DNA of 64,000 bases from Alphaproteobacteria bacterium (GCA_017472065.1 JAFURB010000003.1:16524-80523); one strand, 5' to 3'. Positions 1,057-24,190 are shown, numbered from the stretch's first letter. A program made the numbers and translations. Notes: generated from the letters alone by a model not told the origin.

Positions 1057-1147
1057 GGAGTCGTCGCATAGTTGGTCTAGTGCGCTACATTGGAAATGTA
1101 GTATACTCGCAAGGGTATCAAGGGTTCGAATCCCTTCGACTCCGCCA
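1057..1147 (+). tRNA. tRNA-Ser (anticodon GGA)
   Basis: Manual fold: acceptor GGAGTCG/CGACTCC, 3-bp D stem, anticodon stem CTACA/TGTAG with loop TTGGAAA, long variable arm, T-arm AAGGG-TTCGAAT-CCCTT, encoded CCA. Total 91 nt. Confidence 0.85.
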
Positions 1148-1157
1148 GGAATAAGCA

Positions 1158-1191
1158 AAACCCCGACAAAATCTGTCGGGGCTTTTTTTTT
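1158..1191 (+). terminator. Rho-independent terminator after tRNA-Ser
   Basis: Hairpin CCCCGACA-AAATC-TGTCGGGG followed by a T9 run. Confidence 0.7.
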
Positions 1192-1361
1192 AGCCGGATT
1201 CCAGCCACTTTTTTACCACAAAGTTACCAGTATGTACAACGAAGTTATCAAATGTTCGAATAATTCCACTGCTTACATACAATTGCCAAAATCCCGATGC
1301 CATTTTTGCCTTGAATAAACACGCTTTTTTGTTAATATCATAACCAAAAATAGGGTGTTGT

Positions 1362-2372
1362 ATGGTTGAAACAAATTTTAAAGCGGAAGCAAAATTGGTG
1401 CTGCCCGAAAAAGTAGATAGTAACATCGGTTGTTCTGTCAAAGTTTTATCCGAAGGCGTTGCTTCCTTGTGTAAACTACCGGAAAAGATATTTGATATAG
1501 TGACCAAATCAGGGGCTACACTGTTTAGGCCATTGGCGGCTTATTTAAATGGAAGGGCAGCTATTATGGAGGCACGGAGTTTTGTGGAATCGCAAAATAT
1601 TCGTAAAGAATTGAGTCAGTTTCAATTAGCAATTAATGTTGCACAAAATCTTGCGGCAAAACAGCAAGCAGGTCAAGAAGTCCCGAAAGAAATCGTTGAT
1701 ACTGATACTTTGTTTGCTATCCAAAATGCAGCGACAGAAACTACTGATAAAGATTTTTTAGAGTTTTGGGCACGCTTGTATACAGAAGAGGTTTGTAATC
1801 CGAATACGATAAGCAAAAAGACGGTCGAATTGTGTAAAGTCATAGATAGACAAGTCGCAGAAATTTTGGAAAAGAAAATATTTCCATATTGTGCTGATGG
1901 TTACTTTTTTGCTACTTACGAAATCGATGTGCATGATTTAAGCAGAATTGAAGATTATGGTTTTATTGCACAAAGAAGTACTGAAATAAGGCCAGAACAC
2001 CCATCTAATAATATTATTTTAAGCTTTGGCCAATATACAGTTGTGTGTAGATCGGGCTTTGCTATTGCACCTCCAATGCCAAAATTTTCTTTATCTATAT
2101 CTGGGGCAGAAATTCGAAATATAATTGCTCGTGATAACGTAGATGTTAATTTTGATATGCTAAAAAATAGTTTGACTTTAGCTTCAAAAAGCTGGAGGTT
2201 GTCCAAGAAGTTTAAAGGGAATATTGTTACACTTATGTCAGATAGAAATGTTGATACGAATTTTGTTATTGCCCAAGGCGACAAAATTATTTATCCAGAA
2301 AGTTGGCAAAATAAATCAATCGTAGATTATACTAATGCTTGTTTGGAGACACTAGATATTAAAACGTCATAA
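1362..2372 (+). CDS. Hypothetical protein (336 aa) between tRNA-Ser and the recombinase; possible island cargo
   Basis: Long ORF with ordinary codon usage. No motif I can assign with confidence. Confidence 0.5.
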   Translation: MVETNFKAEAKLVLPEKVDSNIGCSVKVLSEGVASLCKLPEKIFDIVTKSGATLFRPLAAYLNGRAAIMEARSFVESQNIRKELSQFQLAINVAQNLAAKQQAGQEVPKEIVDTDTLFAIQNAATETTDKDFLEFWARLYTEEVCNPNTISKKTVELCKVIDRQVAEILEKKIFPYCADGYFFATYEIDVHDLSRIEDYGFIAQRSTEIRPEHPSNNIILSFGQYTVVCRSGFAIAPPMPKFSLSISGAEIRNIIARDNVDVNFDMLKNSLTLASKSWRLSKKFKGNIVTLMSDRNVDTNFVIAQGDKIIYPESWQNKSIVDYTNACLETLDIKTS

Positions 2373-2374
2373 AC

Positions 2375-3967
2375 TTAATATAGTTGATTATCTCTCGCAA
2401 TCTGAAACAAATCATTAACATTGATATGTGCTTTACCGGACAAGATTTCATTAACCTTGTCCGGATTCATATATGCAATATCCAAGTGTCTGTAAAACTG
2501 GCGTGGCGAAGTGTGTTCTTCTTGGAATATTCTGTGGATATCCCCATCTCGTTCGTACATTTCCCTATATCTCCACGCCGTCGCGAAAGCCTTCAATATC
2601 AGGTGGTTGTTTTCTGTAATGCTCAGCGTCCCATTGCATCCACCGCCAAATCTGGTGTTGGCATATCGGCGCAGTACAACCGGTCGCACAATCGTTACAT
2701 TGTCGCCATTTACCGTATATTCCATTGGACTGTTATTATGATTGATATGATATGTAGATAAAAATGAATTATACAACCGTGGGTTGATGTTGATACAGAA
2801 TATCAGTTGTTCTTGTGAATAAGTTGCTCGTTCAATCATAACGCGAACCAATTCCCGTCTTTGCAGGTATGACAGGTCATTCCATACAATCCGTTTCAAT
2901 GCCATGACCACATTTTGGGGCAGGGCACTCACATCGCTGTCCAGAAATTCGGCTACAACTGACATGGCGATATCGTCCACCTGGGGTGCGGGCAGATAAA
3001 AGCCACGGGTTGCATAATAATGGGTGTTGGTTTTGCCTTTGCCACATGTTCGTTGATTGGTAAAGCGCACGCCGTTGTGATTAAACAGTTTGCCGGTCAA
3101 CAAATTGGGTGAACCGTGTGTTTCAGACTTGTTATTTGCGTTGTTTTGCAAGGCCGCTTGTACACGATTAAACAGTTCTGTGGGTAATATCGCCTGATGC
3201 TCGCCCGGGGCAGTAGTATTATTCGTCTTGTTCACAATTTGGCCGATATAAATCCTGTCACGCAATAATCGATGCATACTCATTTTGGCAATGGGTCGGC
3301 CACCCTTTATGATGCCTTTGGCGGTCGTCCATTGCTTTGCAAATATATTATGTGCCGCTGCATATTCGGTCAGCGCATTTACAGATTGCAGTTCTAGATA
3401 CTTTTCAAATAGTGTCCGAACTGTTGTGGCCTCAGCCTCATTCGGAATCAATTTTTTATTTATCACATCATATCCCAACCGTGGCATGCCACCCATCCAT
3501 ATACCTTTGGCTTTACTTGCGCGTATTTTATCTCGTACTCGTTCGCTGGAAACTTCGCGTTCAAACTGGGCAAATGATAACAGCATATTCAGCGTCAATT
3601 TACCCATAGATGTACTGGTATCAAAAGATTGTGTTATAGATACAAAGTTCGCGTTATACTTGTTGAAATACTGCATCATATTATGGAAATCCAGGATTGA
3701 GCGCGACAGTCGGTCCACCTTGTAAACCACCACGGTATTAACCAAGCCACGTGCCATATCGTCCAACATTTGTTTCAGGGCAGGACGTTCCATCGTCCCA
3801 CCAGAAATCGCAGCATCGCTGTATGTTTTACAATATTGCCACCCATTGAATGATTGGGATGCAATATATGCCTTGCATGCCTCTTCTTGGTTCTGCAAGG
3901 AGTTAAATTCCATGTCCAACCCATGCTCGGTTGATTTTCGTGTGTAAATCGCACATCTATTTGGCAT
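2375..3967 (-). CDS. Large serine recombinase (resolvase/invertase N-domain plus recombinase domain), 530 aa
   Basis: N-terminus RCAIYTRKSTEHGLDMEFNSLQNQEEAC carries the catalytic Ser motif (YxRxST...Q) of serine recombinases. VVYKVDRLSRS and a 530-aa length match the large serine recombinase family. Confidence 0.85.
   Translation of the reverse strand: MPNRCAIYTRKSTEHGLDMEFNSLQNQEEACKAYIASQSFNGWQYCKTYSDAAISGGTMERPALKQMLDDMARGLVNTVVVYKVDRLSRSILDFHNMMQYFNKYNANFVSITQSFDTSTSMGKLTLNMLLSFAQFEREVSSERVRDKIRASKAKGIWMGGMPRLGYDVINKKLIPNEAEATTVRTLFEKYLELQSVNALTEYAAAHNIFAKQWTTAKGIIKGGRPIAKMSMHRLLRDRIYIGQIVNKTNNTTAPGEHQAILPTELFNRVQAALQNNANNKSETHGSPNLLTGKLFNHNGVRFTNQRTCGKGKTNTHYYATRGFYLPAPQVDDIAMSVVAEFLDSDVSALPQNVVMALKRIVWNDLSYLQRRELVRVMIERATYSQEQLIFCININPRLYNSFLSTYHINHNNSPMEYTVNGDNVTIVRPVVLRRYANTRFGGGCNGTLSITENNHLILKAFATAWRYREMYERDGDIHRIFQEEHTSPRQFYRHLDIAYMNPDKVNEILSGKAHINVNDLFQIARDNQLY
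2572..2900. repeat. Copy 1 of a ~330-bp diverged direct repeat (an internal segment of the serine recombinase gene); copy 2 is at 14002-14329
   Basis: Nucleotide runs such as gaaccaattc(c/t)cgtctttgcaggtatgacag and ccacgccgtcgc...ttcaatatcag(g/a)tggttg are shared. The two ORF-track proteins align: ...VRVMIERATYSQEQLIFCININPRLYNSFLSTYHINHNNSPMEY... versus MVRVMIEQAVYSQEQLIFCININPRLYNSFLSTYHINHNNSPMEY... Confidence 0.7.
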
Positions 3968-4394
3968 TGTTGCCCCCTTTATTTAGTCCAAAGAACTTTG
4001 GACCTGAAATCTTTATGCCGGAAATCTCTTTCGCAATTCCAGACAACGTTCTGTAGGTTTGTCCGTTGTAACAAAACGTTCCATCGTCATTTGCTGTGAC
4101 ACAATGTTCGATTCCGCGGAATGTTCGTGTTATAACCGTGCCGGGACGGATATAGTACCGATTATGATACGCATGGGTGACACATTCTGTGGGATTGTCT
4201 TTGTATTTCTTTATCTTGGTCAGGAACTTTGGTTCAATCCGCAGTTTGAAGCGGTCGCATTGAATATAGTACCACAATGCCCGCATTTGTCGTTTGAATG
4301 GGTGTGGACTGTATTTAGCCCAAAGAGTCGCCCGATCTGCAAACGGCATTGCTCGCAGACCATCCAGTGTTGTTGGAAGTTCTATTTTCGCCAT
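3957..4394 (-). CDS. DUF2924-like protein (145 aa), overlapping and co-oriented with the serine recombinase
   Basis: C-terminal ...YNGQTYRTLSGIAKEISGIKISGPKFFGL resembles the conserved DUF2924 terminus (..SGPRFFGL) that is typically encoded just upstream of large serine recombinases. The 11-nt overlap with the recombinase start implies an operon. Confidence 0.6.
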   Translation of the reverse strand: MAKIELPTTLDGLRAMPFADRATLWAKYSPHPFKRQMRALWYYIQCDRFKLRIEPKFLTKIKKYKDNPTECVTHAYHNRYYIRPGTVITRTFRGIEHCVTANDDGTFCYNGQTYRTLSGIAKEISGIKISGPKFFGLNKGGNNAK

Positions 4395-4580
4395 AAATGC
4401 CTCCTTCTATGGTTGTGCAATTACTGCTTACAAAGCTTCTTAAATCAAGCAGAAAATCAAGTTTTTATAAAAATATTGTGTGTTTGTAAAAAATCTAGTT
4501 GGCAATCACTGTATATTATATAGCAATTCGAGTAAAAAATCTCCGTATTGCAATCTAAACAACAACCAAGGAGCTTTTTT

Positions 4581-5885
4581 ATGAAAACTTTAACAATAGA
4601 AAACGTGGCGCTAAATCAAATACGCGCCTATGCGAAAAACGCAAAAAATCATCCAGAAAGCCAAATCCAGCAGATAGCAGCATCTATTCAGCAGTTTGGG
4701 TTCAATAATCCGATACTAGTGGACGAAAATCTGGAAATCATTGCCGGGCACGGTCGTATGGCTGCCGCCCAATTATTGGGGCTGGATACCGTGCCAGTTA
4801 TCCGTCTGGCGCATTTATCAGATGCACAAAAGCGTGCCTATCGCCTGGCTGATAACAAAATCGCCGAAAACGGTGGCTGGAATGCAGATTTGTTGCGGTT
4901 GGAAATATCCGAACTGGAACAAATCTGTGGCGATATGGACGTATCTATTACGGGATTTTCAGATATCGAACTGGATACCTTGACTATGGATAATAGGACG
5001 ACAGCGGATTCCAAGGCAAATAATGTGCCGTACATCCCAGAAAACGAAATTGTAACACGCCCCGGTGATGTGTGGTGTATTGGCGACCATAGAATTATTT
5101 GCGGAAACAGTCTGGATGCGACGACATTTGAAACGCTGCTTGGCACGCGTCAGGCAGATATGGTTCTGCAAGATCCGCCATACAATGTCAAAATATCAGG
5201 GCATGTATGCGGTTCGGGCAATATCCGGCATAAAGAGTTTAAAATGGCATCTGGCGAGATGAGTACAGATGAGTTCACGCAGTTTTTGCACAAGAACTTT
5301 GAATTGTGTGCGAAACATTCTCGCCCTGGGGCATTACAGTACAATTTCATGGATTGGCGCCACATGGGCGAAATATTGTCCGCAGGAACCGATGCGTTTT
5401 CAGGCCTGATAAACATGTGTGTTTGGTGCAAGACTTCGGGCGGTATGGGCAGTCTGTATCGTAGTCAACACGAACTCTGCTTTATTTTCAAAAACGGCAA
5501 GGAATCACACACCAATAATGTTCAGCTTGGTAAAAATGGGCGTTATCGCACAAATGTTTGGCAGTATGCGGGCGTAAATGCCTTCGGCAGGCACAGGTCA
5601 GACATTCAAATGCATCCGACTGTAAAGCCGGTTGAAATGCTGAAAGATGCGATACTCGACGTCACACGGCGTGGCGATGTTGTGTTGGATACATTTCTTG
5701 GATCGGGCAGTACATTGATTGCCGCCCACCAATCCAAACGCATTTGTTATGGCATTGAACTGGAACCACTGTACGTGGATACTGCTATCCGCAGGTTTTT
5801 AGAAATGTTTCATATCGATGCTGTACATCAAGCATCTGGCAAAACGTATTCGGAATTATTAACCGCAAAGCGAGAGGTGTCGTAA
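4581..5885 (+). CDS. ParB-like nuclease domain fused to a DNA methyltransferase (N6-adenine/N4-cytosine, beta class); phage-type
   Basis: N-terminal ParB/Srx-like region (ILVDENLEIIAGHGRMAAAQLLG). MTase motif IV VLQDPPYN precedes motif I VVLDTFLGSGST (order IV then I gives beta class). RBS aaggag lies 7 nt upstream of the ATG at 4581. Confidence 0.75.
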   Translation: MKTLTIENVALNQIRAYAKNAKNHPESQIQQIAASIQQFGFNNPILVDENLEIIAGHGRMAAAQLLGLDTVPVIRLAHLSDAQKRAYRLADNKIAENGGWNADLLRLEISELEQICGDMDVSITGFSDIELDTLTMDNRTTADSKANNVPYIPENEIVTRPGDVWCIGDHRIICGNSLDATTFETLLGTRQADMVLQDPPYNVKISGHVCGSGNIRHKEFKMASGEMSTDEFTQFLHKNFELCAKHSRPGALQYNFMDWRHMGEILSAGTDAFSGLINMCVWCKTSGGMGSLYRSQHELCFIFKNGKESHTNNVQLGKNGRYRTNVWQYAGVNAFGRHRSDIQMHPTVKPVEMLKDAILDVTRRGDVVLDTFLGSGSTLIAAHQSKRICYGIELEPLYVDTAIRRFLEMFHIDAVHQASGKTYSELLTAKREVS

Positions 5886-6253
5886 TGGCAGATTATGAAT
5901 TGGGCTATATGAAACCGCCTAAATCGGGACAGTTCAAACCAGGTCAATCTGGTAACCCAAAGGGGCGACCAAGTGGCAGCAAAAATATTTATAAATTACT
6001 GGATGACATTGTAAACGAAAAGATTCAAATGACCAAAAATGGCAAGCCAGTAAAAATAAGCAAAAAGCAAGCCATGCTATTACAGGCGACAAACAAGGCT
6101 GTGCAAGGCGATTTAAAAGCGTTGCAGACTCTGCTGCCTGTGATGGCAGAAGCAGACAATAAAAATGAAGAACTTGCCAAAGCAGCCACAGCTATTCGGC
6201 AGGACGACATAGAAATATTAAAACAGTATTTAAAGGAAAACAACAATGAATAA
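5885..6253 (+). CDS. Putative terminase small subunit-like protein (DUF5681-like)
   Basis: N-terminal KPPKSGQFKPGQSGNPKGRPSGSKN motif. Position is immediately upstream of, and overlapping, the large terminase. Start codon overlaps the stop of the preceding gene (ATGA). Confidence 0.4.
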   Translation: MADYELGYMKPPKSGQFKPGQSGNPKGRPSGSKNIYKLLDDIVNEKIQMTKNGKPVKISKKQAMLLQATNKAVQGDLKALQTLLPVMAEADNKNEELAKAATAIRQDDIEILKQYLKENNNE

Positions 6254-7697
6254 AGAAATTATGAATGCAATATTACGTACAGATTTTAAATCTTTTGTGG
6301 TAAAGGTGTTTAACGAGGTATCTCCTGGTTCACATTACCTGAACAATTGGCATATTGATGTCATTTGTGACGCAATTATGGATATGTACGAAGGGCGACA
6401 TAATCGCCAGATTATAAATATGCCACCGCGGTATATGAAAAGTATGATATGTTCAATCGCATTGCCGGCGTGGATACTGGGACATAACCCAAAGGCTCAA
6501 ATACTTTGTGTCAGTTATAATGATGAACTGGCAGAAAAATTCGCGATCAGTTGTCGTGACGTTATGCAATCGGATTGGTATCGTGAACTTTTCCCAATGA
6601 CACGTTTGCATCAATCCAGGCAGGCTGTAAACGATTTTGCAACCACACGTGGTGGCGGACGCATTGCCGCATCTGTTGGCGGAACATTGACCGGTCGTGG
6701 CGCAGATTGGATAATCATAGACGATCCACAGAAATCTGTGGATGCAACATCGGAAACCCAGCGTGCCAAATTGAATGAATGGTATGGCTCTACGTTATAT
6801 TCGCGTCTTAATGACAAGGCAAATGGCAAAATTATACTGGTAATGCAACGTCTGCATCAGGATGATTTAACTGGACATTTGTTGGAGTTGGGCGAACAGT
6901 TCAATATCATTAAGCTGCCCATTATTGCAACCGAGGATGAAAACTGGATGGTCAAGAATCGCATTTCTGGTAAAGTGCGAGTAATTACGCGTGCCAAGGG
7001 CGAATTGCTGCACACAGAACGTGAAAATATGGATGTTGTGACAAGCATAAAGAACTCTATGGGTGAAAATGCATTTGTTGCCCAATATCAACAAGATCCA
7101 TGTCCACCAGAAGGCGGAATTATTAAAGAGTCATGGCTACACTACTATACCAAGGCACAGGGTGAATCCATAGATCCAGCTAAGTATTGCAGAATTTTTC
7201 TTAGCTGGGATACAGCCAATAAAACTGGGCCAAATAATGCGTATTCCGCTTGCTGTGTTATATTGATGACACGCGAATCCAATATGTATAAATACTACCT
7301 GCTAGATGTTGTTCGTGGCAAATGGGAAATGCCCGACCTTATCAGACAAGTGGAAAAAGTGTATTGCTATTGGAAGTATGAAAAGGGTGGACAACATTTG
7401 GTAAGATTGTTAATAGAAGATAAGGCGAGTGGAACGCAATTGATACAAATGCTAATGGCACAAAGAGACCGTCATGGATACAATTTTGCAATTGAACCAA
7501 TAAAGCCCGATACAGATAAGACATCAAGATTAATGGGGGCTAGTGCTTATATAGAAAACGGTACATTACGTTTTCCACAAGAGGCGCCTTGGTTGTCAGA
7601 TTTCAAGAAAGAACTATTAGGATTCCCTAATGGTAAATACAAAGACCAAGTTGATGCCTTAACACAATGTATAAATTATGTGGTACAACATTCATGA
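6246..7697 (+). CDS. Phage terminase large subunit (483 aa)
   Basis: Terminase_6/GTA-type TerL features: ...NNWHIDVICDAI..., ATPase Walker B IIIDDPQK, C-terminal nuclease region ...FLSWDTANK... DQVDALTQ. Confidence 0.8.
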   Translation: MNKEIMNAILRTDFKSFVVKVFNEVSPGSHYLNNWHIDVICDAIMDMYEGRHNRQIINMPPRYMKSMICSIALPAWILGHNPKAQILCVSYNDELAEKFAISCRDVMQSDWYRELFPMTRLHQSRQAVNDFATTRGGGRIAASVGGTLTGRGADWIIIDDPQKSVDATSETQRAKLNEWYGSTLYSRLNDKANGKIILVMQRLHQDDLTGHLLELGEQFNIIKLPIIATEDENWMVKNRISGKVRVITRAKGELLHTERENMDVVTSIKNSMGENAFVAQYQQDPCPPEGGIIKESWLHYYTKAQGESIDPAKYCRIFLSWDTANKTGPNNAYSACCVILMTRESNMYKYYLLDVVRGKWEMPDLIRQVEKVYCYWKYEKGGQHLVRLLIEDKASGTQLIQMLMAQRDRHGYNFAIEPIKPDTDKTSRLMGASAYIENGTLRFPQEAPWLSDFKKELLGFPNGKYKDQVDALTQCINYVVQHS

Positions 7698-7730
7698 ATC
7701 AATGGGGTGTTCGCCCCATTGATTATTTGT
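7697..7730. terminator. Bidirectional terminator between the terminase (+) and a lipoprotein gene (-)
   Basis: Hairpin AATCAATGGGG-TGTTCG-CCCCATTGATT flanked by T and A runs. Confidence 0.55.
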
Positions 7731-8289
7731 TGTCGGCAGGTGCCATCAATTTGTTCTTGCATTCAGAATGCCAGTTGGCCGTATAAACAAAGTGACCGCA
7801 ATAACTTTTGGTTATATCTTTTCTATCTGTATAACAATAGTTTGTTATGTCAACAAACCTGCCATCGTTTAGTCTTTCGGTGCGTATGGTTTTATCAAAC
7901 ATAAAATCTGCATTTTTGAACTGTTTTATGCTCCCAACCGTCCACTTATCCATTGTGCCAATATTACGAACTCTAAGATGTTGTTGGTCCATGCACTCAT
8001 CTATAGAATTTCCTGCGGAACATTCTAACAAACTGGTATAGAAAACTTGTCCTTGCTCTTTCTTGTTGACCCAGGGTTGGTCAACAGATTTTTCACTAAC
8101 AAGGACAATGTATCTACCTGGACTTTCTTCTGTGTGTATAATTGTTTTATCAGAATATCCCATACATTCTTGATATTTAGCCAATGGTTTTTCTATGGGG
8201 ATGTTCGGTTTTGTATTGTCGGATATAGGGGATTGAGCCGATCCGCAACCAAATAATATTATTGTTAGAACGGGTGATAATTTTTTCAT
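7723..8289 (-). CDS. Lipoprotein (188 aa)
   Basis: Signal peptide with lipobox MKKLSPVLTIILFGCGS. Confidence 0.6.
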   Translation of the reverse strand: MKKLSPVLTIILFGCGSAQSPISDNTKPNIPIEKPLAKYQECMGYSDKTIIHTEESPGRYIVLVSEKSVDQPWVNKKEQGQVFYTSLLECSAGNSIDECMDQQHLRVRNIGTMDKWTVGSIKQFKNADFMFDKTIRTERLNDGRFVDITNYCYTDRKDITKSYCGHFVYTANWHSECKNKLMAPADNK

Positions 8290-8304
8290 TGTTATTTCCC
8301 CTTT

Positions 8305-8850
8305 TTATCTTTTCCTGTCTTTGTACGGAACGCGCTTATCTCTACCAGACAAACAGTTTAATTTAAAATAACAATTTTTATCTAACAAACATATTGGACT
8401 AAATAATACGGAAAGTGGTGTATAAACAATTGTTGCACCGCCGCCACAAAAAAATGATTGGTAATATTTTCTTTCTTCTTTTGGAAAGTCTGTGTCGTAT
8501 TTTTCTAATGCTTCCTTATACTTTGCCTCTAGTCCCATATCATTATCAATTGTATAATCTGGAACGGTTTTTACAGTTCCCCATGCAGACGTATAACGAT
8601 ATACTCCAACTTGTTTTACACCGTCTACAGAATACACCCCACCATCCACAATATCCGACTTCATGTTGTCTATTGTAAAATGCCCTAAGTTATTCCTGTA
8701 ATACGCAAGAATTTCATCGTCATCAATAACCTGCAATACCTCTATATTGTCGGCAGTATAATCTGGTTGCAATTTTGGAGCATCGGGGTAATCTGGTTCC
8801 ATACACCCAGTTAAAGCTAGTGCTAAAAAAGATAGATTAAACTTCTTCAT
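8305..8850 (-). CDS. Lipoprotein (181 aa)
   Basis: Signal peptide with lipobox MKKFNLSFLALALTGCME. Confidence 0.6.
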   Translation of the reverse strand: MKKFNLSFLALALTGCMEPDYPDAPKLQPDYTADNIEVLQVIDDDEILAYYRNNLGHFTIDNMKSDIVDGGVYSVDGVKQVGVYRYTSAWGTVKTVPDYTIDNDMGLEAKYKEALEKYDTDFPKEERKYYQSFFCGGGATIVYTPLSVLFSPICLLDKNCYFKLNCLSGRDKRVPYKDRKR

Positions 8851-8861
8851 CTTATCCGTCC

Positions 8862-9110
8862 TTATTTTGGTAGCTTATATTTTTTGCTGTTTTTAATATA
8901 AATATCACGCACAATCCATAAAGCACCATTAATGACTTTTTTGCTTTCTTCTGTGGAACCAAGCCATCTCCAACCGCGTTTGGATACGCCTGTTTTTTCG
9001 TTTGGTCTTTTGGCGTCTATACCGTCAATATATGAATAAGTGCTTTCTTGAATCAGAATGTTGTCAGAAATCTCAATAGTAGAGTGTAATACACCTGCGG
9101 ATTTTGCCAT
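8862..9110 (-). CDS. Small hypothetical protein (82 aa)
   Basis: ORF co-oriented and tightly spaced with the upstream lipoprotein genes. No recognisable motif. Confidence 0.35.
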   Translation of the reverse strand: MAKSAGVLHSTIEISDNILIQESTYSYIDGIDAKRPNEKTGVSKRGWRWLGSTEESKKVINGALWIVRDIYIKNSKKYKLPK

Positions 9111-9124
9111 TGGCTTCTCCCTTT

Positions 9125-9350: not shown

Positions 9351-9424
9351 GTAATAGTTTATTCTATGGAATTTTTAATAAATTTATGCTATGTTCTCGA
9401 TGGTAGCCAAGGAATTATGCATAA

Positions 9425-10168: not shown

Positions 10169-10169
10169 A

Positions 10170-14465: not shown

Positions 14466-14573
14466 TAAGTCACCACTGGCATGATTATATCACTTGTATA
14501 AATAATGTCAAATAGTTTGATTTTATGCCCAATATTGTATACCATAATTACAAATTATTACAAAGGTGCGGAC

Positions 14574-17500: not shown

Positions 17501-18134
17501 GTTACGTGTGAACGGCAAAACGTCCAAGGCCGATTTGAAAACATTGGTGCCCGTGTTTAACAAACAGCATCCCGAATATAAAAGATTAAAACAGCAATAT
17601 ATTGATGCGTATGCCCAGTGGCGCACGGACAAAAAAGATCGCCAGAAAATAAGAAACTTGATGGCTTGTATATCACGTGACAAGGTATTCAAGTGGTTGG
17701 CCAGTGGTGGTAATTATGCGACTGAAATTTATACAAATGGCAAAAGCGCTGTTTGGTCATCGGATATTATGTCGAATTGGTGGGCTTTGCAACGCGGCGG
17801 TCGTTTCTGGTGGCGCGATGATTATCCAAATGGAAAATGCATAATGAAATTACGCATCGGCAGCAAGATTCGTGTAATGCATGAAAACGCAACACTTTTG
17901 AAAGAACAAAGAAATATTGGGAAATGGGTGATAAGTCAGATAGAACACGGTCGTGATTTGTTGTTTCGGGTCAAAAAGTTAACAGGTACAAACATTTACT
18001 TGACGCCGGTGCATGTCGCACTTGAAAAACCCGATGATACAAAAACATGGCAGGCCTCGGCACGTTCACTACAAAAAGTATCTGCACAGATTGTTGAAAT
18101 ATCTGTTCTGGGCGATGTTGTTGAACTAAAATAA
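14574..18134 (+). CDS. cas9: Cas9 endonuclease (1186 aa), type II-C-like
   Basis: RuvC-I MKYKLGLDLGSTSLGWAV; Arg-rich bridge helix RRKMRRKQLF; HNH YEIEHIIPRSIGGDDTWANKILTRKDHNLAKGN; RuvC-III NHYHHALDAFVIA. The track ORF starts 23 codons earlier; the ATG at 14574 follows RBS AAAGG and matches the conserved Cas9 N-terminus. There is no csn2 or cas4 in the locus. Confidence 0.9.
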   Translation: MKYKLGLDLGSTSLGWAVVELGDNDEILRLVDMGVRIFPDGQEHSPTGVKSLASVRSEKKQQRLQTDRRKMRRKQLFSKLVETGLLPTDKEMLKELLNPGIGNGNRTNPYELRNKAVEEQVSLYELGRILWHLSKHRGFSGKRDQDIDIQSTKQQVEPSETDNAKEAKNVNKRIERLRHEIASAGVKTLGQYLHKKYEENKSVRFTALEASTGQSSGFPSRKLYQEEFETIWKKQEKYYPNILNEQLKKELRDDIMYFQRPLAQQPVGKCKFEKSEDRIAKCYPLYQEYRILQDINDLELDGTPLPDEYRMAIYHMLMNPNAVDEMIDGNGRLSFDKIREHLNIIGRFNLEHIGNRGLLCNKTNKVMSSDAVFGDKWFDFDAETQEKIIYEITAYHKTKNQSKEALQEMGIKDDALIERLLKKHSLLTKGYSELSAMAIKRVLPAMKNGKKWHEAAAEKYGKHTVVRPYYTFGYNPPKQLPDYRKLFHESLTNGKIGNVTVHIGLNQLRAVINALIERYGHPYSIAIEMARELKMGKKALDIYRRKQWQNQKFNIDARRKINDVLGRSYDSAVSSGEMERYKVWYNLNPKNENQRYDWYDSSDTPLISLRDALSSEYEIEHIIPRSIGGDDTWANKILTRKDHNLAKGNMLPYQYLSESQLARAKRWAKDSDDVRKTESQRKEEEKAIRAGKPVPFVFNSFAWRFESNAGSHINKDFKSRDLNDTRYLCKVARDYLSYICVGYSHAEKQRTPYVIASNGTMTSLFKDIWELNDCLPYDYDKWSIQDWQRDIMKQRIFERLFKDDPEFGVYDKEKTASKAKQDAEKKQIEEELKNTPDSEFLKISSRKKDRTNHYHHALDAFVIACLDNKMVQEINARANEFADMRDKWNRQNDADKEKSLQQIRKEQIQKEYTKPFGGFDKNLLAKTLADLVVAEKQQPDKLQQYLSGKSKGVASFTQDTAFGIADEEYFDDGYIMLRVNGKTSKADLKTLVPVFNKQHPEYKRLKQQYIDAYAQWRTDKKDRQKIRNLMACISRDKVFKWLASGGNYATEIYTNGKSAVWSSDIMSNWWALQRGGRFWWRDDYPNGKCIMKLRIGSKIRVMHENATLLKEQRNIGKWVISQIEHGRDLLFRVKKLTGTNIYLTPVHVALEKPDDTKTWQASARSLQKVSAQIVEISVLGDVVELK

Positions 18135-18464
18135 TTGTAATTGATTGGGGCGTTGTGCCAGTGCGGTTGGCATCTCGGCCTTGTCCAGGTGGATTATGTC
18201 CCCAAATTGGGTGTCTGTAAAGAACAGAATATTCACGTCCCCCGTACACGGGTTGTTGCGTTTTATTGCCCGGATATATTTTTGTGAATTTTCGCGTGTA
18301 CCTGTAAATCGCATATATACAGAGTATTGCGCCATCGAAAATCCCATGTCTTGCAGGAAATTACGAAACTGGCTTGCTGCGCGCCGTTCCTGTTTCGTTT
18401 CGGTCGGTAAATCGAACATAACCATCATCCACATGTACTTTAATCCATCAGTTCTGTATGACAT
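18126..18464 (-). CDS. cas2: Cas2
   Basis: MSYRTDGLKYMWMMVMFDLPTETKQERRAASQFRNFLQDMGF matches the type II Cas2 N-terminus (compare MSYRYMRMILMFDMPTDT). The 3' end overlaps the cas9 stop region by 9 bp, convergently. Confidence 0.85.
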   Translation of the reverse strand: MSYRTDGLKYMWMMVMFDLPTETKQERRAASQFRNFLQDMGFSMAQYSVYMRFTGTRENSQKYIRAIKRNNPCTGDVNILFFTDTQFGDIIHLDKAEMPTALAQRPNQLQLF

Positions 18465-19383
18465 TTTCAAAATCCAATTTATTTTTCTTTTCACTCAGGG
18501 AATTTACAAAATTCCAAACATCGCGTTGCATAATATTTATCAATGGTGAAAATCCAGCGCGTGTTTTAATCTCGGATTCTAAAATCATCGCCATTTGACG
18601 TTTGTCATCTGGTGTTAATTCGCGCGTTTGGTCGTCTGAACCTTGAAAAATCTGATATACAATTGCATCTACGATTGGGCGATATGGTTCCATTAAATCA
18701 TCAACCAGGCACATTGGATTTAGTTGGTTGTGGTGCTGTATTCCATATGACGGGTTTAGTCCTGCTGCAACCACCAAACGTGCCATTGCGCCCCTAATAA
18801 TTGCATATCCATAGTTTAAGAAAGCATTAATTCCACCCATCGTATGTATGCGTAAGAATCCGCCACCGAACAGGGCGGGAAAATACATGCGGGCGGCGAT
18901 TCCTTCTATATTACTGGTGTCACCAGATTGTACAACTGTTGGCAGATTTTTGATTTTGTTATCCAATCCGAAATAGTCCAATACGCGTGATTGGTTTCGA
19001 ATTTTTTCCTGAACAATCGTTTTCCATAATTGTTTTTGTAGTGGCTTGGATGAATTGACCTGTGTTTGCTGTACGGTCATTTGTCGTGTTTGTCCGATCA
19101 ATGGCGTCATTATTCCCACCGGATTATAGTTGTCGCCAATGATGATTAAAGGGATTCCATTGTCGCATAATTGGGTCATAAGATTTTGTGTAAATAAAAT
19201 GGCACGGCCTGTTGCCATTACGGCACAAATAGAATCCATTGGAACCTCGGCCAATGTGATGCCGCGTTCTTTGATGCACAAGAAACCACGGCGTGCCGTC
19301 AATTCGCGATTGTTATTAGAAATTTCAATAATGTTTGTTTGCATATCTGTTATATAAGCACAAAATATTGATTTGTCAACCAT
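18448..19383 (-). CDS. cas1: Cas1 integrase
   Basis: Type II Cas1 hallmarks: ...SGDTSNIEGIAARMYFPALFG..., ...NYGYAIIRGAMARLVVAAGLNPSYGIQHH..., ...DLMEPYRPIVD... The start may instead be the internal Met MQTNII at about 19344. Confidence 0.9.
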   Translation of the reverse strand: MVDKSIFCAYITDMQTNIIEISNNNRELTARRGFLCIKERGITLAEVPMDSICAVMATGRAILFTQNLMTQLCDNGIPLIIIGDNYNPVGIMTPLIGQTRQMTVQQTQVNSSKPLQKQLWKTIVQEKIRNQSRVLDYFGLDNKIKNLPTVVQSGDTSNIEGIAARMYFPALFGGGFLRIHTMGGINAFLNYGYAIIRGAMARLVVAAGLNPSYGIQHHNQLNPMCLVDDLMEPYRPIVDAIVYQIFQGSDDQTRELTPDDKRQMAMILESEIKTRAGFSPLINIMQRDVWNFVNSLSEKKNKLDFENVIQN

Positions 19384-19472
19384 AAGTAAGTTTCTTATAA
19401 AGAAAAAATAGCAAAACGAATCGATTTTTTGAATAAATTTGATTGTTTTTTGATTTTAGATATAACATAAAA

Positions 19473-19497
19473 GCCCCAGGAATCTGGGGACTTTTGT
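19473..19497. terminator. Hairpin/terminator between the CRISPR array and the cas1 start
   Basis: CCCCAG-GAAT-CTGGGG, with a T-rich tract on the plus strand (CTTTTGTG) and also on the minus strand (CTTTTATG). Confidence 0.45.
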
Positions 19498-19504
19498 GCT
19501 ATGG

Positions 19505-21786
19505 ATTATATCAGATTGGAATTAGATGTCTAGCCGCAACGTAGTTAAAACAAAGGAGTAAAAAATGAAAATTATATCAGATTGGAATTAGATGTCTAGC
19601 CGCAACTCGGCACGTGTGATGTATTCGTCCAATTCGATTATATCAGATTGGAATTAGATGTCTAGCCGCAACGTACAAGGCGTTTATATGGCTTAAAAAT
19701 GGATTATATCAGATTGGAATTAGATGTCTAGCCGCAACGTATATATGCACATTCGGCGGTGCTACTGGATTATATCAGATTGGAATTAGATGTCTAGCCG
19801 CAACGAATGCTTTCCCCGCCGTCGGGTTTCCATGATTATATCAGATTGGAATTAGATGTCTAGCCGCAACTGGAAGATTGGGAGCGCCACGGTTATAAAT
19901 ATTATATCAGATTGGAATTAGATGTCTAGCCGCAACAGTTGGAAATCCAACGTGAAGAAATGGAAGTATTATATCAGATTGGAATTAGATGTCTAGCCGC
20001 AACTTCAGTGGCACAGCCGCGCGCACGCCATGAATTATATCAGATTGGAATTAGATGTCTAGCCGCAACCTGCTTTTTAGTGTGTTGTAATCCGCGGAAA
20101 TTATATCAGATTGGAATTAGATGTCTAGCCGCAACTTTTTGAATAGATTGTAATAACAGATATTTATTATATCAGATTGGAATTAGATGTCTAGCCGCAA
20201 CAGTACCACCAAAGAGAAATCGTCCGGAAACATTATATCAGATTGGAATTAGATGTCTAGCCGCAACTTTGCAACAGTATGTCACAAGGCGCGGTTTATT
20301 ATATCAGATTGGAATTAGATGTCTAGCCGCAACTAGGGCGCGCCAGTTATTCAAATGAACCTTATTATATCAGATTGGAATTAGATGTCTAGCCGCAACG
20401 CCACGATACAGACCCCCGCGCCGGTGTGAATTATATCAGATTGGAATTAGATGTCTAGCCGCAACCGACACACACATTATTATATATAACACTGGATTAT
20501 ATCAGATTGGAATTAGATGTCTAGCCGCAACATCGCACGGCTTGCCTTTTCACTAAACACAATTATATCAGATTGGAATTAGATGTCTAGCCGCAACGGG
20601 TGACATTGTTGCACACCGTAAGCAATTATTATATCAGATTGGAATTAGATGTCTAGCCGCAACCAATTTACCGGCAATTTCAAATGCAATTTGATTATAT
20701 CAGATTGGAATTAGATGTCTAGCCGCAACTCCTTATGCTTGTGGCGGTGTTGTTGGTTTATTATATCAGATTGGAATTAGATGTCTAGCCGCAACATATA
20801 ATTTGTCCCCGTTATGATTTTCTTTATTATATCAGATTGGAATTAGATGTCTAGCCGCAACGGATTATACCAAAAGTCATGTCCATGTTCAATTATATCA
20901 GATTGGAATTAGATGTCTAGCCGCAACATTCTGGTGAAAAGTTCATTGTTTATACCCATTATATCAGATTGGAATTAGATGTCTAGCCGCAACGTTTCCC
21001 GCCACCAGATGAATAAAAATTTTATTATATCAGATTGGAATTAGATGTCTAGCCGCAACGACCTCAATCCCCACGTCCGTGGTATAACCATTATATCAGA
21101 TTGGAATTAGATGTCTAGCCGCAACATTTGCGTACGAACACGATTTGAACGGCAAATTATATCAGATTGGAATTAGATGTCTAGCCGCAACTGATAAATT
21201 GCATTCCAAACGGCGGTAAATATTATATCAGATTGGAATTAGATGTCTAGCCGCAACTAGCAATCTGGGGAGATAAAAACATTATTGATTATATCAGATT
21301 GGAATTAGATGTCTAGCCGCAACGATATAAAAACTTAGGAGCACTTGATTTCAATTATATCAGATTGGAATTAGATGTCTAGCCGCAACATACTGATATA
21401 TTAAAGTCGATTCTTAACTATTATATCAGATTGGAATTAGATGTCTAGCCGCAACACTGAGTTAGGTCTTATTACTTTAGATGAAAATTATATCAGATTG
21501 GAATTAGATGTCTAGCCGCAACAGGAACCGACTACTGTTATTCACTTGACATATTATATCAGATTGGAATTAGATGTCTAGCCGCAACATATCTTCAAAT
21601 GCCATCGCATCCTTAACCATTATATCAGATTGGAATTAGATGTCTAGCCGCAACGTTACAAATGATGATTGATGATGCTCATTAATTATATCAGATTGGA
21701 ATTAGATGTCTAGCCGCAACCTCTGGCATTATCTGCACCATCTACACACAATTATATCAGATTGGAATTAGATGTCTAGCCGCAAC
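19505..21786 (-). CRISPR. CRISPR array: 35 direct repeats of 36 bp and 34 spacers of 29-31 bp; crRNA inferred to be a minus-strand transcript
   Basis: Plus-strand repeat ATTATATCAGATTGGAATTAGATGTCTAGCCGCAAC, period ~66 bp, first repeat 19505-19540, last 21751-21786. In crRNA orientation the repeat is GTTGCGGCTAGACATCTAATTCCAATCTGATATAAT. Strand is inferred from the tracrRNA anti-repeat orientation. Confidence 0.95.
21751..21759 (-). promoter_or_regulatory. Representative intra-repeat extended -10 element (TGATATAAT) at the 3' end of each repeat in crRNA orientation
   Basis: On the minus strand each repeat ends ...CTGATATAAT, which is TGnTATAAT. This would start transcription a few nt into the adjacent spacer, as described for Neisseria and Campylobacter type II-C arrays. 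Confidence 0.5.
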
Positions 21787-21981
21787 CGCGATGGTGGTGG
21801 TCATGTGCATATCAAAACGGGTCATCCCCGTTCGTGGTTACGGGGATAGTAATTATTGGTTGTAATCTTATTATGCTTGTATTCATAATTATGTTCAAGT
21901 GTCTTTTATAAGATGATTTTCATATGATGGGTATCTTTATACCTCTTTTCTTTGTGTGAAATATATGATATAATACCAAAC

Positions 21982-22278
21982 ATGAGAAAGACAATATTGG
22001 CAATTTTATTGCTGGGGTTGACTGGATGTATGTCTGGGACACCCAATGGTGAATATGTGGATGCACCTGTGGAATGTGCGGGTGATTGTTCTGGGGTGAA
22101 TTTTTCCATGCCAAATGGAAATGACCTGAAACTGGAAACAGATCGTCATGTTGTACATGTAACGGCGGATCCAAACACAAATTATGCATACTATGTATGG
22201 ACGGGGGATAAATCATACGATGATGATCCCGACATCATGGTCGAAAATGGCGAAGCCTATGTATTAACTGTTGAATAA
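21982..22278 (+). CDS. Small lipoprotein (99 aa)
   Basis: MRKTILAILLLGLTGCMSG lipobox. Followed by a bidirectional terminator. Confidence 0.55.
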   Translation: MRKTILAILLLGLTGCMSGTPNGEYVDAPVECAGDCSGVNFSMPNGNDLKLETDRHVVHVTADPNTNYAYYVWTGDKSYDDDPDIMVENGEAYVLTVE

Positions 22279-22280
22279 AA

Positions 22281-22310
22281 ACAAAACCGCCGTTTGGCGG
22301 TTTATTTATG
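22281..22310. terminator. Bidirectional terminator
   Basis: AACCGCCG-TTTG-GCGGTTT flanked by A and T runs. Confidence 0.6.
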
Positions 22311-23463
22311 CGTTCTGTCCGGCAACGCGACCCGATGCCCATGCCCATTGCAGGTTAAAACCACCCAAATCGCCGGCGATATCTAAAACTTCGCCCACAA
22401 AGAATAAGCCTGGACAGATTTTTGATTCCATTGTTTTTGATGAAATATTGTCGGTTGAAACACCGCCGCGAACAATTTCTGCGCTTTGCAGATTGTGTAA
22501 TTTTATGTCATGCGTATCAATGTGCATATTGTTGATATTGTTTGCGATTGCGCGAATTTCCGTATCACGCCAATCGGCGATATTACGCGTGTCGGCATGT
22601 GAAAAATATTTGGCGATGCGTACTGGTAAATGCTCGGCCAATATGGTTGAAATATTGCGTTTTCCATTTTTTTGTTTTGCATCTTTTAGTGCTGAAAAAA
22701 TATCACAATCCGGACACAGATTTATTGTGATGCCGTTTGATAAATCACGAACACTGGCACGATACACGACCGGTCCGCCAATACCAAAATGCGTGAATAA
22801 CATATTGTCGCGAATTTTTTCACGGCCAACGGATATTTCTGCTTTTATTGAAATGCCGGCCATATCTGCGCCAAATATCGGCACCGCCATTGCACACAGG
22901 GCTGGTCGCACCGGTACAATTTCATGGCCGAATTGTTTCGCGATTTTATATCCAGTGTCCGATACACCCAATGTGCCAAACGATATGCCACCCGTTGCCA
23001 CGATGATGGATTTAGAACAAAATTCTGTGCCATTTGCAACAACGATAAATTCTTCACTGCGTTTATTAACATTATTTACATTATGGTTGAATTTAATATC
23101 TGCGCCCATGGCATCGCGCCCCAGGGCGTCAACAACCGCATCCGCGCCGTCGGCACAAAAATATCGTCCAGGCTCTTTTTCATATAACTTTAATTTGTGT
23201 CGTTCGCACCATTTTAAGATGTCGGTGGGGCCGACCCGGCTTAGTGCGCCACGAACAAAGTTTGGATTTTTTCCAAAATATCGTGTGGCCCCGGCGGCCA
23301 TATTTGTAATGTTGCATTTGCCACCACCGGATGCGGCAACCTTGCGTGCGGGGGATGCGCCCATATCCAGAACCAGAACGCGCCGACCACGCGTTACCAA
23401 TTCACCCGCCGCCGCCAATCCTGCGGCCCCCGCGCCAATAATAATTACATCATACTGTTTCAT
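22306..23463 (-). CDS. FAD-dependent oxidoreductase, HI0933/BaiN-like flavoprotein (385 aa)
   Basis: MKQYDVIIIGAGAAGLAAAGEL Rossmann dinucleotide-binding motif. Length and C-terminal GxxxxG region fit the HI0933 family. The 420-aa plus-strand ORF over the same region is antisense and spurious. Confidence 0.8.
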   Translation of the reverse strand: MKQYDVIIIGAGAAGLAAAGELVTRGRRVLVLDMGASPARKVAASGGGKCNITNMAAGATRYFGKNPNFVRGALSRVGPTDILKWCERHKLKLYEKEPGRYFCADGADAVVDALGRDAMGADIKFNHNVNNVNKRSEEFIVVANGTEFCSKSIIVATGGISFGTLGVSDTGYKIAKQFGHEIVPVRPALCAMAVPIFGADMAGISIKAEISVGREKIRDNMLFTHFGIGGPVVYRASVRDLSNGITINLCPDCDIFSALKDAKQKNGKRNISTILAEHLPVRIAKYFSHADTRNIADWRDTEIRAIANNINNMHIDTHDIKLHNLQSAEIVRGGVSTDNISSKTMESKICPGLFFVGEVLDIAGDLGGFNLQWAWASGRVAGQNA

Positions 23464-23466
23464 ATG

Positions 23467-23997
23467 TTATCTTTTTCGTACGACATTATCTTGTACATGT
23501 GTAATTAATTTTAGCATATTTTTATCCGGATAACGATTGATTATTTCGTCGATGTTGTCTTGGATTTCTTGGTCTGCGATACGCAAAATATCACCCATTG
23601 TTAATGGTTGTTCGATTTCGATATGCCATGCGCCACATTGATACAGTTTGTTTTTGTCGTTGCACCGTTGCTTATGAACCGGGGACAGTGGCTTGATTTC
23701 AAAGAAATACATTTCATGCCATGGTGTAATATCGCCCATCCCGACATAGTACCACATCAACAAATCAATTGCATTGTCAGTGAAATGAATCATTGGTATT
23801 TCTGTCTGCAGTGTTATTCCCGGTTGTGGGATGCCTGATTTTGAATACTGTTTACACCAATCAAACAGTCGTCCCCGTGAAACAAATCGCTGGCCGGGGT
23901 AAATTTCATCAATGTCTAATATGTTGTATGTTTGTGCAAAGTGAGAATTGTGCACAGTAATCATCTTAAAAAAACGCGGATAGTCTAAGTTTTTCAT
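23467..23997 (-). CDS. Hypothetical protein (176 aa)
   Basis: ORF co-oriented with and 3 bp upstream of the oxidoreductase. No assignable motif. Confidence 0.45.
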   Translation of the reverse strand: MKNLDYPRFFKMITVHNSHFAQTYNILDIDEIYPGQRFVSRGRLFDWCKQYSKSGIPQPGITLQTEIPMIHFTDNAIDLLMWYYVGMGDITPWHEMYFFEIKPLSPVHKQRCNDKNKLYQCGAWHIEIEQPLTMGDILRIADQEIQDNIDEIINRYPDKNMLKLITHVQDNVVRKR

Positions 23998-24102
23998 TGC
24001 AACAATGTTACCCCATGTTTATGGTTTGTCAACATGAAAAAAGATTCTTTTTCGCGCTTGCAATTATTTTCAGGATTCTATATAATAGCCAACGCACACC
24101 AC

Positions 24103-24190
24103 GGAGCGTTGGCAGAGTGGTAATGCAGCAGATTGCTAATCTGTGACCGGTATTATCGGTCCATAGGTTCGAGTCCTATACGCTCCGCCA
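24103..24190 (+). tRNA. tRNA-Ser (anticodon GCU)
   Basis: Manual fold: acceptor GGAGCGT/ACGCTCC, anticodon stem GCAGA/TCTGT with loop TTGCTAA, long variable arm, T-arm ATAGG-TTCGAGT-CCTAT, encoded CCA. Total 88 nt. Confidence 0.85.

Follow-up and report, generated by a model that had tools for sequence, protein, structure and literature searches.

A tRNA-Ser(GGA) hotspot of layered mobile elements and defence genes in a gut alphaproteobacterium of the Candidatus Enterousia group

We describe a defence region in a 64,000-nucleotide stretch of DNA from an alphaproteobacterium (GCA_017472065.1, JAFURB010000003.1:16524-80523; hereafter the window). The 20,811 bp at 1148-21958 are a variable region and chromosomal hotspot in Candidatus Enterousia, flanked on the left by rpoZ (648-1040, plus strand; Pfam RNA_pol_Rpb6, 3.7e-14) and tRNA-Ser(GGA) (1057-1147, plus strand), the integration target, and on the right by a lipoprotein gene and an HI0933 flavoprotein gene, which a 192-amino-acid (aa) gene may precede. 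Very probably, the hotspot was built by integrative elements encoding a large serine recombinase (LSR) and a DUF2924 protein, which enter at the tRNA, together with a CRISPR-Cas locus. A first-pass annotation of the window had treated the region as a single island; instead it comprises three layers of different age, namely an intact element, E1 (1152-12773), the remnant of a second, E2 (12774-14329), and a type II-C CRISPR-Cas block (14330-21958).

The window is 100% identical to ENA contig XIEF21-1_SAMN15829981_METAG-scaffold_29 (297,612 bp) and, from 20128 onwards, also to a contig of the NCBI metagenome-assembled genome GCA_017467005.1. The closest species-level genomes belong to Candidatus Enterousia/order Rs-D84 Alphaproteobacteria from animal guts, a group with genomes of 0.75-1.0 Mb in which many basic pathways are absent (PMC12306168). 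Eighty loci around rpoZ homologues were retrieved, one per species (loci are given below by L numbers), and 55 of them were scanned for tRNA linkage; counts of recombinases, mini-units and PADLOC matches were drawn on 78 related species. Strain-level variants (the L094-L097, L100 and L101 set) were retrieved with the exact sequence of the lipoprotein gene at 21982-22278. tRNA genes were identified with ARAGORN and Rfam, and protein families with profile and sequence searches of Pfam, PADLOC, PHROG and PDB.

The right edge of the island was fixed by comparing strains. In L096, L097, L100 and L101, homology to the window begins exactly at 21959; from there rightwards these strains are 98.0-98.5% identical to it (21959-24129 covered), and to the left they are unrelated. 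Because strains this similar diverge left of 21959, the edge is 21958 and not tRNA-Ser(GCT) (24103-24190, plus strand; ARAGORN, Rfam), which lies outside the island. From the tRNA-Ser(GGA) 3′ end to the lipoprotein gene, L096 measures 4.6 kb, against 20.8 kb in the window, and its hotspot holds a decayed recombinase element without Hachiman or CRISPR-Cas. The window, L094 and L095 have CRISPR-Cas, whereas the four strains above lack it at the junction; it is variable cargo, in line with the earlier suggestion that it may belong to the mobile cargo.

Comparison between species gave the same flanks. rpoZ was linked to tRNA-Ser(GGA) in all 55 loci scanned, and tRNA-Ser(GCT) was within 10 kb of the rpoZ/tRNA-Ser(GGA) pair in none (0/55). 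The right anchor (192-aa gene, lipoprotein and HI0933) stood 0.2-9 kb from the tRNA in 26 species, compared with 20.8 kb in the window; lipoprotein and HI0933 lie downstream of the tRNA in the same orientation, with the 192-aa gene before them in some species. L012 and L024 are essentially empty sites, the latter with the order rpoZ, tRNA, 192-aa gene, lipoprotein, HI0933. The genes to the right of the edge, namely the lipoprotein (21982-22278, plus), the HI0933 oxidoreductase (22306-23463, minus) and a 176-aa gene (23467-23997, minus), are thus core genes and not island cargo. The first-pass annotation had counted the lipoprotein and the oxidoreductase as island members, although both are linked to rpoZ/tRNA-Ser(GGA) in many species, and its extent of 1057-24190 was about 2.2 kb too long on the right, since the variable block stops at 21958. 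Its bracket of two tRNA-Ser genes holds insofar as both tRNAs lie where it placed them; as a bracket it is coincidental and confined to the window. As a right boundary, tRNA-Ser(GCT) is ruled out by the linkage count, the conservation of 21959-24129 and the right-anchor distances. It carries no att repeat, the sole direct repeat of the tRNA end found in a search for core and arm closing at 12773. The 176-aa gene adjoining the oxidoreductase is not a lipoprotein.

Further right, the window contains cysS and then rpoD (profile searches), which had been proposed as neighbours of rpoZ in strains lacking the island. In the aligned relatives L028, L029 and L058, rpoD instead lies 6-8 kb upstream of rpoZ (with an adjacent 183-aa gene there in L028 and L058), and in L024, L045 and L064 HI0933 abuts a giant gene that is found at 53.5 kb in the window. 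Judged from these alignments, cysS/rpoD is not the ancestral right flank. The giant open reading frame (ORF; more than 3,507 aa, 53474-63997, minus) runs off the window end, and in the same three loci the homologous DNA directly follows HI0933. A 30-kb core block (23500-53500: cysS, rpoD, tRNA-Arg, tRNA-Ser(CGA) and others) is placed differently in L024, L028, L029, L045, L058 and L064. Gene order across the clade is poorly kept beyond a 5.5-kb block around rpoZ. A species-wide profile of gene-neighbour conservation was accordingly rejected as proof of a hotspot, synteny being lost upstream of −5.5 kb as well; as this profile does not discriminate, strain-level comparison, anchor distances and a PADLOC control were used instead.

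For that control, random ORFs of at least 150 aa from the 78 species were searched against PADLOC (E ≤ 1e-10). The downstream sample (124 ORFs, 0 to +10 kb from the tRNA) matched 187 PADLOC families and the upstream sample (125 ORFs, −11 to −5.5 kb) matched 4, these being counts of families and not of proteins. The upstream sample is a fair control because both regions are non-syntenic between species. Downstream families included Cas9, Drt8, GajB, AriA, SoFic and many restriction-modification models. The GC content of the island is 37.9%, compared with 43% in the flanks; the deviation sits in the cargo (Hachiman 29.9%, cargo slot 1 35.7%; overall 30-36%), against 43% in both element core and chromosome. 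Strain-level variation and defence content together bear out the proposal of an integration hotspot with defence cargo downstream of tRNA-Ser(GGA), and no single gene block was seen to be shared by all relatives.

E1 is an intact integrative element between 13-nt direct repeats. The repeat, ACTCCGCCAGGAA, consists of the last 9 nt of tRNA-Ser(GGA) plus GGAA; from attL (1139-1151) it recurs exactly once, at the attR core (12761-12773, plus), and across the family the attachment core is an identity of 9-13 nt, ACTCCGCCA(GGAA). What comes after 12773 in the window (a native-type terminator, then the gene for a 328-aa protein) starts no more than 3 nt from the tRNA in L003. The right arm (12722-12760, plus), TTCCCTGATGTTGTATGCAAAAGACCGTAGAAAAGTCTT, comprises the 39 nt before the distal repeat and is identical in L081, L082, L086 and L088, whose cargo differs. 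Because of the exact repeat, the L003 junction and a right arm kept despite differing cargo, E1 is taken as an 11,622-bp insertion with defined ends. An integrase together with tRNA-derived direct repeats was found for E1 only. The left end (1152-1306, plus) brings its own terminator hairpin for the tRNA, and many recombinase-bearing loci are homologous to it only as far as about 1302-1309, the start of cargo slot 1. An attB at about 1306 was considered and rejected: tandem arrays repeat the right arm, core and left terminator together, and slot 1 begins at 1306. The predicted attP reads ...GACCGTAGAAAAGTCTT-ACTCCGCCAGGAA-TAAGCAAAACCCCGAC..., and the restored attB, as deduced, would read tRNA...CCCTTCG-ACTCCGCCAGGAA-ATTAAAATCAAAACCGCCC.

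The recombinase-bearing, phage-like element of the first-pass annotation is present, with LSR, DUF2924, ParB-methylase, DUF5681 and terminase genes. The 530-aa LSR (2375-3967, minus; Pfam Resolvase 2.5e-39, Recombinase 2.1e-11; PHROG integrase 1.5e-88; TP901-1 integrase 1.1e-24) has N-terminal resolvase and recombinase domains and an intact catalytic motif, YTRKST, with the nucleophile serine; Pfam gave no match in its C-terminal 250 residues, where phage-type integrases of this family have a zinc-ribbon/coiled-coil domain. The DUF2924 gene (3957-4394, minus; Pfam 4.4e-20) is always paired with the recombinase. On the plus strand follow a ParB-N domain fused to an N6/N4 DNA methyltransferase (4548-5885; profile matches), a DUF5681 protein (5885-6253; Pfam 1.3e-23), whose position suggests a small terminase subunit, and the terminase large subunit, TerL (6246-7697; PHROG 2.2e-111, Pfam Terminase_6C). 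The core closes on the minus strand with two lipoproteins of 188 and 181 aa (7723-8289 and 8305-8850; lipoboxes present) and an 82-aa protein (to 9110); these three are 97-100% identical in L009 and L103, with the 82-aa protein appearing unchanged in 297 blocks of the assembly collection. Neither Pfam nor PHROG searches of the E1 ORFs found capsid, portal, tail or other structural-protein families, and three small core ORFs have no family.

A GC-rich (53.5%) non-coding stretch upstream of the 82-aa gene (9111-9312) ends in a 27-nt hairpin motif (9285-9311) that forms the inner edge of cargo slot 2. The stretch is 97-100% conserved between elements otherwise about 80% identical and folds more favourably than shuffled controls (z = −3.2); it may serve packaging or regulation. 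The 27-nt motif, which was also weighed as a candidate crossover site, occurs in either orientation (L021, L025 and L079 compared), and in L079 the whole block from the ParB-methylase to the 82-aa gene is inverted beside it. The 3′ third of the recombinase gene is mosaic, with two C-terminal variants, and homology with many copies begins at about 2930-2970. Independent recombinase truncations (L031, L043, L047, L067, L096 and L166 compared) cluster at the equivalent of window positions 2876-2920, three of these loci (L043, L047, L067) sharing one identical junction. An SSV1-like arrangement, with att located within the recombinase gene, was suggested by this clustering and rejected on account of intact genes in integrated elements and differing breakpoints; the region is a mosaic boundary.

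The E1 core stands beside rpoZ/tRNA-Ser(GGA) in L009, L039, L079, L081-L089, L103 and L104, and more than 10 genomes from different species share both this gene set and its ends. Over 5.3 kb, the L009 copy is 97.1% identical to that of the window, compared with 88.6% for the adjoining rpoZ region; synonymous divergence is 0.07-0.17 for the E1 genes and 0.47 for rpoZ. By this sequence comparison, E1 is shown to have been transferred horizontally between species. At synonymous divergences of 0.6-1.8, the ratio of nonsynonymous to synonymous substitution rates (dN/dS) is 0.04-0.13 for LSR, DUF2924, ParB-methylase, DUF5681 (0.04-0.07) and TerL (0.08), with 0.08 for rpoZ. Values this low argue that the E1 core genes are functioning and are not those of a decaying prophage stump.

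Two cargo positions differ between otherwise near-identical copies of the element. Slot 1 reaches from the left end to the stop codon of the recombinase gene and holds a DUF2806 protein in the window (1362-2372, plus; Pfam 9.7e-10; GC 35%) and AbiJ (4.6e-73), CoiA_N or unassigned genes elsewhere; in the second, tandem element of L086 it holds bSEFIR (5.8e-89). Slot 2, between the hairpin motif and the right arm, carries a probable Hachiman pair in the window (HamA 9425-10168 and HamB 10170-12602, plus; GC 30%) and, in other copies, PD-Lambda-4 (about 5e-47), a GHKL-type restriction enzyme with a Dcm methylase, or a 1387-aa AAA_14 protein. HamB is well matched (PADLOC 3.5e-47; Pfam DEAD, ResIII and Helicase_C; PDB chain 8zue_B, "Anti-bacteriophage protein B", 4.7e-11). 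The HamA candidate has a weak PD-(D/E)xK match as its only one in PADLOC, shows a D...ESK motif in translation, and its gene ends 1 nt before the hamB start; PF08878.17 is precomputed for the identical protein and for about 40 homologues, one of them named HamA by UniRef. Annotation sources thus conflict on 9425-10168, the precomputed table giving PF08878.17 and the Pfam-A scan no match. Most of the gene content listed in the first-pass annotation (lipoproteins, HamB, hypothetical gene, recombinase fragment, cas genes and oxidoreductase among it) was confirmed by profile searches. Most copies (L081-L088) have a 203/216-aa gene (faint DuOB match) and a DUF488 gene (PADLOC candidate PDC-M45C, 5.8e-32) just inside the right arm, a pair that is absent from the window's copy. 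In other species, LSR-DUF2924 occurs directly with HNH/Dcm/AIPR/DUF4420 or Dcm/DUF6339 genes and without TerL.

Beyond attR, E2 (12774-14329) consists of the native-type tRNA terminator, the 328-aa hypothetical gene (12947-13933, plus) in slot-1 position, and a 330-bp recombinase 3′ fragment (14000-14329, gene sense minus) with 90-91% DNA identity to 2573-2900 in E1. L086 and L088 show the same layout (core, slot-1 cargo, LSR) in a second, tandem element behind the distal repeat; in L081 and L082, attR is immediately followed by an older relic unit that is complete. Tandem second elements and distal relics together indicate that new elements enter at the tRNA and that older material is pushed outward. 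Recombinase genes or remnants were found within 3.2 kb of the tRNA in 25 of the 78 species: at full length in 14, truncated by contig ends in 4 and as fragments in 7.

The third layer is a type II-C CRISPR-Cas locus (14330-21958) with cas9 (14505-18134, plus), cas2 (18126-18494, minus) and cas1 (18448-19383, minus), all three identified by profile matches. A candidate trans-activating CRISPR RNA (tracrRNA; 14345-14470, minus) consists of an anti-repeat (14430-14461) followed by a terminator hairpin and U-run, and the array (19505-21786, minus) has 35 identical 36-nt repeats, GTTGCGGCTAGACATCTAATTCCAATCTGATATAAT on the minus strand, and 34 spacers; a probable leader (21787-21958) ends at the island's right edge (21958/21959). 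The gene set of a type II-C locus (cas9, cas1, cas2, array and tracrRNA candidate) is present, csn2 and cas4 are absent, and 14330-21958 contains no further ORF of at least 80 aa outside the cas genes. The cas genes do not form one co-directional operon; cas2 and cas1 are on the minus strand, convergent with cas9, with a 9-nt tail-to-tail overlap. The window lacks the native 192-aa flank gene. CRISPR-Cas is cargo of the hotspot, and carriage by a recombinase element finds no support, as no att core or arm flanks the block; arrival by recombination through flanking homology is what we infer. A cas locus 1.2 kb from the tRNA in L015 (11880-16476) has the identical convergent layout, with cas1 79% and cas2 86% identical to the window and cas9 only 32%; the tracrRNA region and the first approximately 190 nt of cas9 are alignable at 75%. 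The pattern suggests, from sequence comparison, that the effector (cas9) was replaced within a conserved adaptation module. L031 has a different type II locus. Spacers matched neither the window, nor element copies, nor other loci, apart from one partial match to a ribosome-binding-site-like stretch, and the two leader-proximal spacers had no exact match in IMG/VR.

We propose that these results are best explained as follows. LSR + DUF2924 elements would insert at the tRNA-Ser(GGA) 3′ end through the 9-13-nt core, the LSR presumably catalysing integration and excision (attP × attB) with assistance from DUF2924. Each element would supply its own terminator for the tRNA, and each integration would leave an intact tRNA at attL, so that a later element could enter at the same place and push earlier ones outward to decay. 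The three layers of the window would then be intact E1, the E2 remnant and the type II-C locus, which may have replaced the rest of E2 together with the native 192-aa flank gene. TerL and DUF5681 might package the element into helper phage capsids in the manner of a satellite, and the cargo genes and lipoproteins may protect the cell against phages. The scenario, in which we have high confidence as a whole, is drawn from the boundaries, repeats, tandem arrays, strain and species variability, transfer of E1, purifying selection, exchangeable cargo and defence homology seen in the comparisons above.

Several observations count against it. No excised circle was found in the one metagenome scanned for the arm-core-left-end junction, which returned a single decayed tandem array. 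No same-species empty attB was found with the exact rpoZ protein, which gave only the source contig and short contigs ending after rpoZ, and the closest E1-empty site, L003, belongs to another species. Neither att core nor arm was found at the right end of E2 or of the CRISPR-Cas block. Profile scans found no replication gene (primase, Rep) in any E1 ORF, and IMG/VR held no phage TerL relative above 34% identity outside island copies, so no helper phage was found. The HamA candidate (247 aa) has no Pfam-A match even at E ≤ 10 and none in PDB, and the PADLOC HamA profile is silent. The downstream PADLOC count, being one of families, is too high because redundant methylase models, and probably the recombinase as well (mad3, 10 members), add to it, and synteny collapses upstream of −5.5 kb too, so that species-level variability alone is no proof of a hotspot. 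For serine integrases, which typically cross over within about 2 bp and need no long homology, a 13-nt core is long and tRNA targets are unusual; because core and target are atypical, catalysis is ascribed to the LSR conditionally, as the sole recombinase present.

Other explanations were weighed against the same evidence. That one 23-kb island lies between tRNA-Ser(GGA) and tRNA-Ser(GCT), with rpoZ adjacent to cysS/rpoD where it is absent, would account for the two tRNA genes at their positions and for the variable HNH gene just beyond the second. It is almost certainly wrong: 21959-24129 is 98.0-98.5% conserved in strains without the island content, lipoprotein and HI0933 follow rpoZ/tRNA-Ser(GGA) in many species where tRNA-Ser(GCT) never does (0/55), rpoD lies upstream of rpoZ in L028, L029 and L058, and no direct repeat of the tRNA end is found besides the one closing at 12773. 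Very unlikely, too, is that the variability reflects general loss of gene order in a fast-rearranging clade without any dedicated hotspot. Neighbour conservation does collapse on both sides, downstream of the tRNA and upstream of −5.5 kb, and the 30-kb core block is placed differently in other species; general rearrangement would fit poorly with variation between strains 98.0-98.5% identical, with precise, repeat-flanked insertions, with a right-hand anchor kept at 0.2-9 kb, or with 187 PADLOC families against 4 in two regions that are both non-syntenic.

E1 might also be a dead, truncated prophage stump inherited vertically, to which defence genes were added independently. Its lack of capsid, portal, tail and replication genes, the recombinase fragments that are all that is left in many loci, and the occurrence of an LSR-DUF2924 pair and terminase in Wolbachia WO prophages (PMC10299305) would agree with this. 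We regard it as improbable, given an identical gene set and ends in more than 10 genomes of different species, dN/dS of 0.04-0.13 at synonymous divergences of 0.6-1.8, far greater likeness of E1 between species than of the adjoining core gene, and cargo slots inside conserved arms and repeat. A further possibility, compatible with the proposed build-up by LSR-DUF2924 elements and its most specific version, is that E1 is a phage satellite whose own TerL and DUF5681 load an 11-14-kb genome into helper capsids and so spread defence cargo. This reading deserves serious consideration and falls short of being the favoured one. It draws on small size, an integrase with a selected terminase pair and no structural genes, transfer between species, and a conserved stretch (9111-9312) that could serve packaging or regulation; P4-like satellites and phage-inducible chromosomal islands (PICIs) likewise have defence hotspots. 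On the other side, no replication module was found in E1, the nearest TerL in IMG/VR is 34% identical with no helper phage, no circular or encapsidated form was seen in IMG/VR or the one metagenome scan, and in known satellite families the terminase gene is usually that for the small subunit, not TerL.

Among known systems, P4-like elements and PICIs are said to be phage satellites with defence hotspots, in 2022 work by Rousset et al. and Fillol-Salom et al. E1 resembles them in small size, a conserved core, one or two variable defence loci and the lack of structural genes; unlike them, it is without a tyrosine integrase, a primase and genes for capsid-size or small-terminase redirection, and encodes TerL. 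The tycheposons of Prochlorococcus are alike in their streamlined host genome, site-specific tRNA integration, full or partial tRNA repeats, arrays of intact and decayed elements, and cargo-carrying and PICI-like forms, and a minority of them use large serine recombinases (bioRxiv 10.1101/2020.12.28.424599). E1 differs in its pairing of LSR with DUF2924, its core of TerL, DUF5681 and ParB-methylase, the absence of replication genes among those found, and anti-phage cargo in place of nutrient-uptake genes. Pipolins share tRNA-gene integration, direct repeats and exchangeable defence systems, but E1 has no primer-independent PolB and a recombinase of a different type (PMC11551731). The phage-inducible chromosomal island-like element (PLE) of Vibrio cholerae is likewise an anti-phage island moved by a large serine recombinase; it integrates in Vibrio cholerae repeats and not in a tRNA, depends on a directionality factor encoded by a phage, and includes a replication module but lacks a terminase (PMC6002521). 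Its likeness to E1 rests on a shared recombinase superfamily. In Wolbachia phage WO, a ParB-methylase and a terminase presumably lie near the same end as the recombinase-DUF2924 pair. WO has an alphaproteobacterial host and a recombinase gene beside a DUF2924 gene, like E1, and is a complete phage of approximately 65 kb, with a 15.6-kb form proposed as a gene transfer agent (PMC10299305); unlike WO, E1 stops after TerL and carries defence cargo. The slot 2 pair resembles Hachiman in having a HamB helicase behind a HamA-family PD-(D/E)xK candidate, the latter too divergent for the Pfam and PADLOC profiles. The cas locus resembles type II-C systems in cas9, cas1, cas2, 36-nt GTTG... repeats and tracrRNA anti-repeat, and differs in that cas1-cas2 is convergent with cas9 and there is no single operon.

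tRNA-linked defence islands and mobile elements with defence slots are well established, which makes this hotspot a solid but expected example; even so, a host with a genome of 0.75-1.0 Mb still spends 20.8 kb, approximately 2%, on mobile immunity. The vehicle, an LSR/DUF2924 element at a tRNA 3′ end with a selected TerL/DUF5681/ParB-methylase core and two slots, is apparently undescribed: a literature search found no description of the E1 family or of Enterousia defence islands. Rather more doubtfully than the satellite reading itself, E1 may represent an undescribed family of 11-14-kb phage satellites or satellite-like transducing elements in gut Alphaproteobacteria with reduced genomes, a family that would insert at a tRNA 3′ end by LSR-DUF2924, encode its own TerL without replication or capsid genes, have a defence hotspot at either end, and be the main anti-phage vehicle in these genomes of less than 1 Mb. 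The satellite reading, if true, would be of more interest than the defence island. The slots are a place to seek new defence genes (DUF2806, the 328-aa protein, the 1387-aa AAA_14 protein, and the 203/216-aa and DUF488 pair), and the deduced attP/attB pair is a possible new serine-integrase tool.

Outside the island, tRNA-Ser(GCT) is a second, small tRNA-linked variable site. It is followed on the plus strand by a truncated mini-unit (24191-24315) and an HNH block (24316-25330; 1,015 bp). The 311-aa ORF after the tRNA matched no family profile, and its translation contains an HNH-type motif (DLHHIVP...N...HxxH); the HNH gene noted earlier beyond the right-hand tRNA is therefore real as a motif, and constitutes a separate 1-kb indel at this second site. 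L095 (98.6% identical) is without the HNH block and has the rest of the mini-unit (L095:4384-4592) and a second copy of the tRNA-Ser(GCT) 3′ end. Approximately 24 of the 78 species have a conserved mini-unit of 110-150 nt, in one of two sequence types, behind the tRNA terminator; it ends in a degenerate T-arm together with the last 9-15 nt of the tRNA, copied exactly. Mini-units lie just after tRNA-Ser(GGA) in L005-L008, L011, L012, L023, L024, L028-L032, L048, L057, L078 and L096, and those behind tRNA-Ser(GCT), in L095 and (truncated by the HNH block) in the window, are related to them. ARAGORN and Rfam gave no match, and an identity as transfer-messenger RNA (tmRNA) or another catalogued RNA was rejected. 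Three readings are possible for a mini-unit (relic att arm, miniature non-autonomous element, small RNA); as non-autonomous miniature derivatives, mini-units could be mobilised by E1-type machinery. Their central hairpin shows compensatory changes.

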